Below are positions 33,202 to 42,073 of a stretch of DNA of 64,000 nucleotides, in pieces. Every line of letters starts with the position of its first letter. Position 1 is the first letter of the stretch. The translations under genes were made by a program, and so were the position numbers. Source of the stretch: Candidatus Woesebacteria bacterium GW2011_GWB1_33_38 (GTDB lineage: Bacteria > Patescibacteriota > Microgenomatia > UBA8517); assembly GCA_000990005.1 (NCBI GenBank), contig LBPF01000006.1, forward strand, positions 33,615 through 97,614, written 5' to 3'. Below the pieces are notes generated by a model. The model did not search any database and was not told the DNA's origin. It saw only the letters and a list, made by a program, of their open reading frames with translations.

Positions 33202-33447
33202 ATGGCCAATAAAAATAAAAGGGAAATTGTATATGCATTTATAGACAGCCAAAATTTAAATTTAGGTACAGGTAAAGATATTGTTAAGAATGGAAGGTTG
33301 GTATACAAAGGTTGGAAACTAGATTTTAAAAGATTTAAAAAGTATCTGACTGATAAATTTAGAGTTACTAAGGCATTTTTGTTTATTGTTTTTATCAAAA
33401 AACAAACTTATTTTGAACCAAAAAAAATCGGAGGGCGTTGCGAATAG
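33202..33447 (+). pseudogene. NYN-domain (LabA/DUF88) gene, internally deleted or truncated
   Basis: AFIDSQNL..W.LDFKRF..YL; lacks the K.VD and SGD motifs seen in the intact copy. Confidence 0.75.
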
Positions 33448-33518
33448 ACACGTAGTCTAATGTTCGTATTCCTCCTAATGATTATGTAATTATAATTTAT
33501 ATGTATAACAAAAGTCAA
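33420..33518 (-). ncRNA. Candidate antisense sRNA unit (promoter, hairpin, U8) over NYN 3' end
   Basis: TTGACT-18-TATAAT on minus strand; GGAGG/CCTCC, CGAA/TTCG, TAGAC/GTCTA stems; T8. Confidence 0.55.
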
Positions 33519-38728: not shown

Positions 38729-39853
38729 ACTTCATCAATTGTAACTTTCTTTTGTTCTTTTGTCTGCAAGTTTTTTAGAGTAACAATTTTATTTTCTACC
38801 TCGTTTTGACCAATAATAATTACGTACGGAATACCTTTTTTATCTGCATATTTTAGTTGTTTATCAAGCTTAGTGTTAGGATCAGGGTAAATTTCCGAGT
38901 TTATTTACTAAAACTTTAGTATTAACTTTATCTACCTTGATTAATCCTAATTCATCGGCTGCCTCAACGGTTCTATCAAAACCAAAAGCAATTCCTGTTG
39001 CTGGCATATCAAGGCCTGTTAATCTTTTCATCATCCCGTCGTAGCGTTCACCACCACCAACAGAACCTACTTTGTAATCCTCGATGACGATTTCCCATAT
39101 TGGACCTTCCGAATATGAAAATGATCTGGCAAGGGTAGGTTCGAAACGATAAAACTCACGACTAAAACCTGACTTCTCTAAATATGCAATAATTATTTTT
39201 ATAGTTTCATCTGGTTTTATTTGAGAGACAAATTTTAAGTATTCCTTAGCTTTTGAATTAGAAATTCCTTTTTTGATCATGTCTGTTATTACCCCTTCTG
39301 GACCTATCTTTTTCAACTTATCTATGGCAACTATTGCTTCGTAGGAGACACCTTTCATAAGATCACGATTATTAAATATGATTACAGGTTTTTTAAAACC
39401 TATGGAAAGATAAGTATCAATATTTTCTGCAATAACTTCTGCGTCAGCAGTAGGGCCAGCAACACCAAAAATATCAAGATCAAATTGTGTGAACTCTCTA
39501 TATCTTCCCTTTTGAGTATTTTCTGCTCTAAATACAGATTGAAATTGATAACGTTTGAAAGGAAAAACCAAACTGTTTTGATTGTTTGCAACAAACCTGC
39601 ATGTTGGAACTGTTTGATCATAACGAAGCATTACTTCACGATCTCCCAGATCCTTGAACTTATAAAACATTTTTTCATCTTCACCAACTTCACCTTTGAA
39701 TAGTGAATATGACTCAAGTGTTGGAGTTTCAATTGGTTCATAACCCCACCTTTCTGCGGTTTTGATCATAATATCTTTAACCCAGTTTCGTTTATAAACT
39801 TCACTGGGCAAAAAGTCCCTAAATCCTTTTAATGTTTGTATTTTACTTGACAT
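38707..39853 (-). pseudogene. hisS: Histidine-tRNA ligase, frameshifted/deleted near 38905
   Basis: KGFRDF, LRYDQT, GRYREF, GGGERYD; anticodon domain (KQLKYADKKGIPYV) continues in another frame to TAA at 38707. Confidence 0.9.
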
Positions 39854-39917
39854 ATATCTATTTCTATATTATTATATCAATAACCTACCTCGTTCGGTTA
39901 CGAACGAGGATTTTTTT
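39847..39917 (+). ncRNA. Candidate antisense tiny RNA unit (promoter, hairpin, U7) over NYN 3' end
   Basis: TTGACA-17-TATTAT, perfect CCTCGTTCG-GTTA-CGAACGAGG stem, T7. Confidence 0.5.
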
Positions 39918-40511
39918 GACTATTTCCAGATTTAAATCTTTTAACTTAGCTTTTGCTTTATAACTTTTGAAAAACGTTTCTTTATAATCAATAATTTTAG
40001 CGAAATTTGATTGATATGCAATTGCAATTGAAAATCTATTAGGTATAAAAATAGAATAAACTTTATATTTTAATTTTCTAACAATCTCAACTGAATACGC
40101 GAAATCAGCATCTCCTGAGACAATAATCGCAGTTTTAAATTTCTTTTGAAAAGCGTCTTTTGTTAGATCAACTGCTAAATGTACATCTACACCCTTTTCT
40201 TTTCCTGAAGTTGGTGATCTGTAGCCTTTGTAAAACACTAAATTGGGAGTTTTTAACACATCGTTAAAAAAGACCAATTCTTCTTTAATTTGTCTTTTTA
40301 TTTTCAAAACCTTTAAATTCTTAGCTGTTGATGGTGTATATGAAGCATAAAAATATATTTTGTCAAATTTATAAAGTTCTCTGAAATCACTTACGATCGA
40401 TTTAAAACTGGGTACTTTATCAAATCCAAAAATATCAATCAGCCCAGCAAGTAGATTTGTTCCGTCAATATATAAAAATGTTTTTTTATTATTTTTTCTT
40501 TTTGTAGACAT
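39885..40511 (-). CDS. NYN domain (LabA/DUF88) PIN-fold RNase
   Basis: YIDGTN, EKGVDVHLAVD, VSGDADF. Confidence 0.92.
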   Translation of the reverse strand: MSTKRKNNKKTFLYIDGTNLLAGLIDIFGFDKVPSFKSIVSDFRELYKFDKIYFYASYTPSTAKNLKVLKIKRQIKEELVFFNDVLKTPNLVFYKGYRSPTSGKEKGVDVHLAVDLTKDAFQKKFKTAIIVSGDADFAYSVEIVRKLKYKVYSIFIPNRFSIAIAYQSNFAKIIDYKETFFKSYKAKAKLKDLNLEIVKKILVRNRTR

Positions 40512-40529
40512 GGATTTATATTATCATCT

Positions 40530-42073
40530 TTAAGTTCCTTTTTGAACGAGTTTACGATTCCAATTTTCGGCAGCCTTTAAAATATATAAAACTGGTGGAA
40601 AGTTTTCTCTTGAACTTTTGCCTATTGTATAGTTTACATCTCTTTCTCGACGTTCTGTACTAATAAGAATTGTATTTTGATCTAATGTTCCCAAAATTAC
40701 CCCTTGAGCAGCATTACATGCCCAAATACTTCTTGTTAACTCAAGTGTCTTTTGCCTGATTTCATTTTCGGCAAATATCTTTCGTTTGGTTTGACTTTCA
40801 AATCGTCTTTCAACATCATCCTCAAATTTTTGATACCACTCTCTTGCAAAATCGTAATCTTTAAAGTTTTTAACTTTTTCTAAAATTTCCAATTTTACTT
40901 TTTGATAAACAGGATTTTCATTTGTAAGTTCCGAAATTGGTTTAATTACTATCCCTCGTGAATTTTGTAGATATTGCTTTACATTCACAATGTAATCTTT
41001 TATGTTTTGAAGATTTTTTAAATTAACTGGTCCAAATTCTCCAATTTCTGAATAATCTGTATCAGCAATATAAATTGTTAAGTTAGATTGAATCCCGTAA
41101 TATTCAAAAAAATTGGGAATAAGTAACATCTCATCAATGATAAGTGGTATGGCCTCAAGTTTTGGATTGTCAAGATAAGCATTCAGGTTCGGATTTGAAG
41201 TGTATCCACCTTTGTAATCAAATTCGTTTATAAGACAAAGCACCGTTATTAAGTTGATTTTTCCACCTTCTAATCCATTAAAAATAATTTGTTCAAATCT
41301 ATTCGAGCCCCAAATATTGTCTGTTTTTATTCTATTAATTTCATATTGAATTGAGGTTAATGTTAGTCCTTTTTCTTCATCTCCCATATCCTCGATGTAT
41401 TTAAGAAGCGATCTTTTTAGCTGACTTATCCTTTGGTTATATAAAGTGGTGTTTAAATATTTTTCAATATCTTGATCTGTAATTTTATTTTCTATATCTT
41501 TTTTAATAACTTTTTCTGCATCAGGCAAACTTAGATCAAGTTTGTCGGCAGTTTGACAAACCAATCTATTAAAATTATCTCCGTATGAATCGTTTGAGGG
41601 CGTTTGTTTTAGGTAATTAATTTTGGAATCCAAAGCTTCCCTTTTGAGTCTTTCGTATTCGTTGTCGTTAGTATTGATCCATTTTAGAATTCTTTTTGTT
41701 TCGAACTTTAAATTATCTAAAATCCATTTTTCACCTTCGTTAAGATTCTTTTTTGGTTTGCTTAGGCTCTTTGAAAATTCCGGAATTGAGGAATCTTCGA
41801 GAACCAAAAATGGTCCAAGTATTTTATGTAGTTCCAACTTTCAGCCCGACTTCTTATTTTTTCAATAATCTGTTTTGCAACTACAGACTTATTTTGATTT
41901 AAACGCAGAATTGTTGAATCTACTTCTAACTGAATATCTGATTTAATTGACTCTGCTAGTGATACAATTTGATTTGACCACGGAAAAAGCTGACGATCTA
42001 AAAATCGTCCAAATAACAGTTCAATATTTATGTTTTTGTTATCTTTTATTCTTTCCATTTTTATAAATTTCAT
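40530..42073 (-). CDS. Large hypothetical protein, probably one gene split by a 1-nt frameshift near 41840; C-terminal half CDPS/HUP-fold-like
   Basis: Overlapping ORFs join as SRAE-KLELHK if GAAAG gains one A; C-terminal pattern NLITVLC, LTIYIADTD, ISEL, NAAQG, PVLYI. Confidence 0.6.

Follow-up and report, generated by a model that had tools for sequence, protein, structure and literature searches.

A conserved antisense unit predicted to encode a small RNA over the tail of an accessory NYN gene, read as a candidate type III-like toxin-antitoxin pair

An antisense unit made of a promoter, a hairpin and a U-tract lies over the 3' end of the NYN gene of locus 2 in the window (the whole 64,000-nt stretch of Candidatus Woesebacteria bacterium GW2011_GWB1_33_38 DNA that was analysed). 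The unit is conserved among related loci, with a covarying stem and a conserved leader. It is restricted to accessory NYN clades, and the encoded protein has an NYN fold and active site. With moderate confidence, we interpret locus 2 as a type III-like toxin-antitoxin pair whose RNA would inhibit the predicted nuclease protein. The module would consist of the accessory NYN gene and a separately promoted small-RNA gene, antisense over its 3' end. Sigma70 RNA polymerase would make large amounts of the RNA, in the form of a primary transcript. The hairpin would dock on the NYN protein, and the single-stranded ACYUA leader would probably fill the RNA-binding cleft as a pseudo-substrate. Upon a host transcription stop or loss of the module, the RNA would decay and the freed nuclease would cut cellular RNA. 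This last step, which is the weakest, could result in addiction or an abortive-infection-type defence.

Antisense unit, NYN gene and neighbours at locus 2

Coordinates given in the initial annotation for TTGACA, the 17-nt spacer, TATTAT, the 9-bp stem and T7 were rechecked on the sequence and are all correct (Table 1). The promoter matches the consensus at 11 of 12 positions. The stem arms (39888-96 and 39901-09; 9 bp, 6 G-C) enclose the loop GTTA, and the hairpin energy is -17 kcal/mol (z = -5.15; 0/200 shuffles). The predicted RNA overlaps the last 11 codons and the stop of NYN, to which it is complementary. A role as terminator of the NYN mRNA was rejected, because the U-tract is on the antisense side only. 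Positions 39880-39917, which belong to the training set of covariance model R1, scored 51.8 bits with this model. An Rfam scan of the window returned tRNAs only. No contig from three same-sample metatranscriptome sets aligned to the region, a result that is uninformative about expression.

Single promoter-like sites (32 vs 29.4 expected) and terminator-like sites (7 vs 4.9 expected) were at background level, without enrichment, in an 8-kb region. Locus 2 alone therefore proves little, and these counts are in keeping with a chance arrangement in AT-rich DNA over the hisS start, which is weighed against the survey below.

Table 1. Features of locus 2 and locus 1 (window positions)
Feature	Position	Strand	Basis or remark
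-35 hexamer TTGACA of antisense promoter	39847..39852	+	overlaps hisS codons 1-3 on the opposite strand
-10 hexamer TATTAT, 17-nt spacer	39870..39875	+	sequence; position profile of the clade
Predicted 35-nt small RNA	39883..39917	+	promoter spacing and terminator suggest 39882 or 39883 as start
Conserved single-stranded 5' leader ACCUA	39883..39887	+	ACCTA/ACTTA conservation among clade units
9-bp hairpin, 4-nt loop	39888..39909	+	folding and covariation
U7 tract (T7) of intrinsic terminator	39911..39917	+	sequence
NYN (LabA/DUF88, PF01936), predicted ribonuclease, 208 aa	39885..40511	-	acids D16, D109, D134, D136 intact
hisS	38882..39853	-	downstream neighbour, outside the module; frame break near 3' end
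Extended -10 (TG-A-TATAAT)	39871..39879	-	overlaps plus-strand -10; a local feature without clade-wide conservation
Truncated clade-B NYN (locus 1)	33202..33447	+	shares 57% identity (58 aa) with the third NYN of the genome
Locus 1 antisense unit	33420..33518	-	TTGACT 33518-13, 18 nt, TATAAT 33494-89
Locus 1 predicted 63-nt clade-B RNA	33482-33420	-	sequence

The NYN gene had been described as intact, and the protein analysis agrees. In a profile search the 208-aa ORF matched PF01936 with 55.4 bits (cut-off 24.2, E = 1.2e-14). NYN was the sole family found in Pfam, NCBIfam (TIGR00288, sub-threshold) and PADLOC (HEC-09, E = 1.9e-13), and a PDB sequence search gave weak matches only. The AlphaFold2 model (pLDDT 87.1) shows a PIN-like fold, with 2QIP as best Foldseek match (E = 1.2e-6) and MARF1 NYN as a further one. 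Of 25 clade-A rows, 24-25 have each of the four active-site acids. Homologues with a named source belong to Microgenomates/Patescibacteria. LabA/DUF88 NYN domains occur in thousands of bacterial proteins annotated 'function unknown' (PMC5499597), and another bacterial NYN has Mn-dependent ssRNase activity (bioRxiv 2024.04.08.588522). A 435-aa ORF upstream of NYN (40530-41837, minus strand) had no match in Pfam, NCBIfam or PADLOC.

The overlap of the -35 with the hisS start, initially noted as a caveat, is real, but as an objection it dissolves. Among the 79 unique loci, the -35 overlaps a called downstream ATG in 12, and 22 have an ATG context. It is thus incidental, and the hisS start was rejected as cause of the -35. 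Transcription of hisS could begin from the extended -10 on the minus strand, about 18 nt away from where the small RNA would start, and the site would then be bidirectional. hisS ends at 323 aa, with the remaining C-terminal domain in another frame just downstream (window 38735-38900, minus strand). The frame break is either real or an assembly error.

Clade-A survey and constraint on the RNA

A genome-contig search with the single NYN protein as query gave no matches, and loci were retrieved with a 54-sequence alignment as query. Among the 120 loci obtained, 104 were in the clade (profile score at least 85) and had enough downstream DNA, with 79 unique 3' ends. Units were scanned as TTGAC, -10, closing stem and U-rich tract, and the identical relaxed scan was applied to all controls. 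With a strict -10, units were found in 42/104 loci, with the relaxed scan in 93/104 (71/79 unique) and after further relaxation in 100/104.

Relaxed scanning found no unit on the sense strand of the clade-A loci (0/104), and none at control NYNs (0/29; the 29 best-scoring in the phylum, mostly of the single-copy rpsO-pnp type, of which one locus was checked and reads rpsO-NYN-pnp). NYN loci from relatives carried it in 13/29. Among 762 mechanical ORF ends of the genome, 4 had a unit. Two of these belong to NYNs and one to an LPD3-like protein of 127 aa; the fourth is probably a chance match. Chance is excluded by the antisense count (100/104) against the sense strand, the controls and the ORF ends. 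With the stem covariation reported below, the probability left to a chance arrangement is negligible, and the survey already refutes it. This comparative survey of NYN 3' flanks had been proposed beforehand, and homologues were found to keep the layout with compensatory changes.

TTGAC lies 34-36 nt ahead of the leader in 55/61 unique clade units, which thus places the leader at the expected +1. In a position profile of 71 unique units the spacer has low information and a second peak stands at the -10, both hexamers having been selected by the scan. Downstream genes fell into 42 clusters and upstream genes into 62 clusters among 71, with no conserved partner protein. Of the 64 called downstream neighbours, 20 are aminoacyl-tRNA synthetase genes (hisS 11, argS 5, trpS 4; loci L031-L146). 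In viral contigs and phage records, the peptide patterns and queries used gave no clade-A or clade-B match. One locus (L049) has a second NYN immediately after the clade-A NYN. Another (L056) carries two tandem promoter-hairpin units with a common leader and differing stems. Several records titled 'uncultured Gammaproteobacteria' (among L033-L051) nest among Patescibacteria in a quick tree, and these titles are likely mislabelled.

For covariation analysis, 51 units were aligned (50 of the 61 unique units and the window; 10 near-duplicates and one false match were removed). They had been chosen by a hairpin-shaped pattern, which favours outer pairs. Pairing was found in 99.8% of 450 stem cells, and 7/9 pairs showed two-sided changes. 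The covariation score was 0.450 vs 0.205 after shuffling (0/500 shuffles reach it), and slid controls gave at most 0.208. UG occurred in 13/51 units at one pair. The covariation is thus tolerant of G-U.

These results bear on a DNA-level device, i.e. a mobile-cassette end or an insulator/bidirectional promoter-terminator with the RNA as mere by-product, which we regard as quite improbable. The very variable neighbours would suit it, as would the minus-strand extended -10, which could serve hisS, and an orphan unit that survives ahead of polX (see below). The G-U tolerance points to RNA instead. The -35/-10/+1 spacing is fixed, the U-tract is strand-specific, and the minus-strand -10 varies in the clade. 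In addition, 9/64 called downstream genes are in opposite orientation, and a phage record (L269) has an upstream unit with an apparently Bacteroidetes-type promoter.

The leader reads ACCTA in 37 and ACTTA in 20 of 61 unique units (57/61 together). The NYN stop lies over it at offset -2 in 25/61 and at +2 in 21/61, i.e. in two frames (46/61). In 12 units the stop is at least 14 nt away, and 10 of these keep the leader. The constraint must therefore act on the nucleic acid. Judged from these alignments, the leader is conserved beyond terminator requirements and independently of the NYN frame. The leaders resemble the 16S 3' tail and might mimic it; this tail was searched for in the genome and not found.

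A covariance model of the clade-A RNA had 8 matches in 141 whole genomes. Seven were opposite a clade-A NYN (4 uninterrupted, 3 broken). The eighth was an orphan in a 99% complete genome in which no clade-A gene was found. Units beside three broken NYNs and the orphan suggest that the RNA outlasts the nuclease, as expected of antitoxins. Their survival beside broken genes could instead reflect entanglement with the start or promoter of the neighbour. A perfect clade-A unit without adjacent NYN lies between tRNA sequences and polX (L224/L277; G186:C4:55660-55727), and in other loci an NYN is present at the polX position. When no hairpin was required, the promoter and leader pattern matched 30 times in 301 genomes and its reversed control 17 times, so that most matches are chance. 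Of these 30, 8 had the hairpin, and 7 of the 8 were opposite an NYN.

Clades B and C and the mode of action

Clade-B antisense RNAs are longer, with internal loops and a leader of their own (leader 29/30, TTGAC 23/30). Besides the truncated gene of locus 1, clade B includes the third NYN of the genome (G000:C8:21920-22402; 29% identical), which is intact and has its own antisense unit (L001:1297-1388). The initial annotation described two dissimilar NYN genes with unrelated RNAs. The RNAs are indeed dissimilar, yet each belongs to a clade-wide RNA family. By sequence comparison, the RNA family follows the protein clade. As RNA and gene are physically linked, this match shows co-inheritance and not co-evolution.

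Clade C (plasmid/prophage) was obtained from plasmid searches. Its kinship to the window NYN is weak (38% over 72 aa), and in a quick tree it groups with clade A (SH-aLRT 82). E105 is present in all clade-A and clade-C rows, with K in others. Here the promoter, RNA and terminator are upstream of NYN in sense orientation. A strict sense terminator just before the gene was found in 10/16 clade-C loci (6/16 were without one), 1/74 in clade A, 2/30 in clade B and 0/19 controls. In L260, four hairpin repeats of 33 nt separate the promoter from the terminator (333-480), and L267 has two or three degenerate ones (285-500). In both, which are on small enterobacterial plasmids, the tandem repeats are followed by the terminator and then NYN. 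The L260 module occurs in 10 of 5,426 E. coli genomes, always on plasmids. Long perfect palindromes (arms about 17-39 bp) lie just upstream of or over the NYN promoter in L250, L259 and L264. The clade-A covariance model matched no clade-B or clade-C RNA at E<=5, so the link between clades A and C consists of architecture and weak protein kinship only. On present sequences, the RNAs of clades A, B and C are analogous in plan, and homology would go beyond the evidence.

The clade-C layout also bears on cis-antisense action or transcription interference of type I-like kind, in which pairing with the last codons and stop, or polymerase collision, would lower NYN mRNA without RNA-protein contact. 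Antisense pairing is impossible in clade C, as the unit is upstream in sense. The distal duplicate unit of L056 lies outside the ORF. Both partners would be locked in hairpins, the loops being short and variable (3-5 nt). Complementarity to the mRNA 3' end is perfect in clades A and B, and the leader covers the stop codon in most units, but complementarity alone requires neither a conserved leader nor clade-specific internal loops. Since the clade-A RNA could pair with the mRNA tail along its whole length, such action keeps some probability, though we consider it unlikely. As in type I systems, the antisense RNA is complementary to the mRNA (39883-39917). In txpA/RatA, a type I toxin-antitoxin system, a convergent small-RNA gene overlaps the 3' end of the toxin gene. 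Most toxins of type I systems are small membrane peptides, and the antisense RNAs paired with them are longer; here a predicted nuclease of 208 aa faces a predicted RNA of 35 nt with a conserved leader. The initial suggestion of 'antitoxin or ligand' is the preferred reading, and the sense-upstream, repeat-array layout of clade C lends it support.

Comparison with known systems and further candidate units

ToxIN, CptIN and TenpIN (PMC13682666) resemble the present loci in that an endoribonuclease-type protein comes with its own small structured RNA, about 35 nt long. With clade C they also have the order promoter, RNA (repeats), terminator and protein gene in common. They differ in the protein, which here is NYN/PIN-like and not of the ToxN/CptN/TenpN family. 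In contrast to canonical type III RNAs, the clade-A RNA is a simple single-copy hairpin without H-type pseudoknot (pseudoknot potential of loop with leader or tail, 0/71 units). The clade-A unit is antisense at the 3' end, and an upstream sense terminator is the exception noted above. Being a single copy from its own convergent promoter, the clade-A RNA would need no processing. Membership of ToxIN, CptIN or TenpIN was rejected on toxin family, clade-A gene order and pseudoknot. The locus agrees with type III in the wide sense in that a dedicated conserved ncRNA is predicted next to the putative toxin gene, and no protein antitoxin accompanies it.

AbiF is an RNase toxin neutralised by a stem-loop ncRNA whose binding has been shown (PMC12737573 and bioRxiv 2025.04.15.648962). 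In the same texts, AbiF/AbiFr and C. difficile AbiF-RCd22 resemble the NYN loci in having a stem-loop ncRNA with one or two 33-35-nt motifs and an intrinsic terminator, and the clade-C layout equals the operon plan of AbiF-RCd22 (bioRxiv 2025.04.15.648962). AbiF, however, is a HEPN (Abi_2) protein, and RCd22 is upstream and co-transcribed. Here the protein is an NYN, the units of clades A and B are antisense at the 3' end, and binding is only predicted. Assignment to AbiF/AbiFr was rejected, as profile and structure searches gave an NYN fold and no HEPN.

The RNA motifs DUF3800-I to -XI, drum and skipping-rope comprise several unrelated structures, often with a terminator at the end; they accompany a single family of nuclease-fold proteins, on either side and either strand, with function unknown (PMC5737381). 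The words 'NYN' and 'DUF88' are absent from the main text of that paper. The DUF3800 protein is RNase H-like (PMC10910872), in contrast to NYN. In Rfam scans of 17 and 20 related loci (E<=1 or 0.5), no match at an NYN RNA exceeded the gathering threshold, and an Rfam-known family, including the DUF3800 motifs, was rejected for want of a covariance-model match.

LabA/DUF88 proteins (NYN.COG1432; PDB 2QIP), MARF1 NYN (5YAA/6FDL), HEC-09 and the CRISPR-associated NYN of B. fragilis have the fold and active-site acids in common with the window NYN. They differ in that no small RNA is mentioned for HEC-09, LabA/DUF88 or the B. fragilis NYN in the accessible parts of the sources; single-copy rpsO-pnp NYNs differ in being without antisense unit. 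Among tested NYN candidates HEC-09 is the nearest, and it protected against none of the phages tried. This inactivity, like the DUF3800 precedent, would suit an RNA that serves a non-toxic NYN ribonucleoprotein as cofactor, activator or specific substrate and does not inhibit it, and the conservation data fit that equally. We consider it improbable. The clade-A RNA is without variable guide segment, the repeat array and internal terminator of L260 fit an excess of antitoxin over toxin, and RNAs that persist by dead genes fit an antitoxin.

In the full-text literature covered, from which most subscription papers are absent, no account of NYN proteins with a dedicated small RNA was found. Judged by these likenesses, the loci likely operate like type III toxin-antitoxin or AbiF systems, yet outside ToxIN, CptIN, TenpIN and AbiF. 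More tentatively, NYN nucleases might form a large unrecognised class with RNA antitoxins. A nuclease gene with its own promoter, structured RNA and terminator might then be a general architecture, adopted independently by several folds (NYN clades A, B and C, LPD3-like, DUF3800). The leader might be a substrate mimic, and the clade-C RNA might have expanded into nuclease-processed arrays, a PIN-fold parallel to the path from AbiF to Cas13.

A dedicated small RNA would, if true, give accessory NYN clades a mechanism, and both the toxin fold and the gene layout would be new to RNA-antitoxin systems. It would also explain how screens with an ORF cloned without the right flank could mislead. If an inhibitor, the 35-nt hairpin would rank with the least complex RNAs that inhibit a protein. 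The L260-type module on small E. coli plasmids makes the system experimentally accessible, although the source organism is uncultured.

The 127-aa LPD3-like protein of the genome (G000:C10:1561-2045; L181, L213) has an antisense promoter, an 80-nt structured RNA and a U-tract. Its LPD3 matches are sub-threshold and the likeness is weak; LPD3 is presumably a nuclease fold. Six homologous loci show similar units, three of them with common internal motifs. For the family, antisense structured 3'-end units were recorded in seven loci (4 by script, 3 by eye). On the plus strand at G000:C1:30862-30931, a TTGACA promoter, a short hairpin and a U-tract lie in sense directly before a 210-aa ORF.
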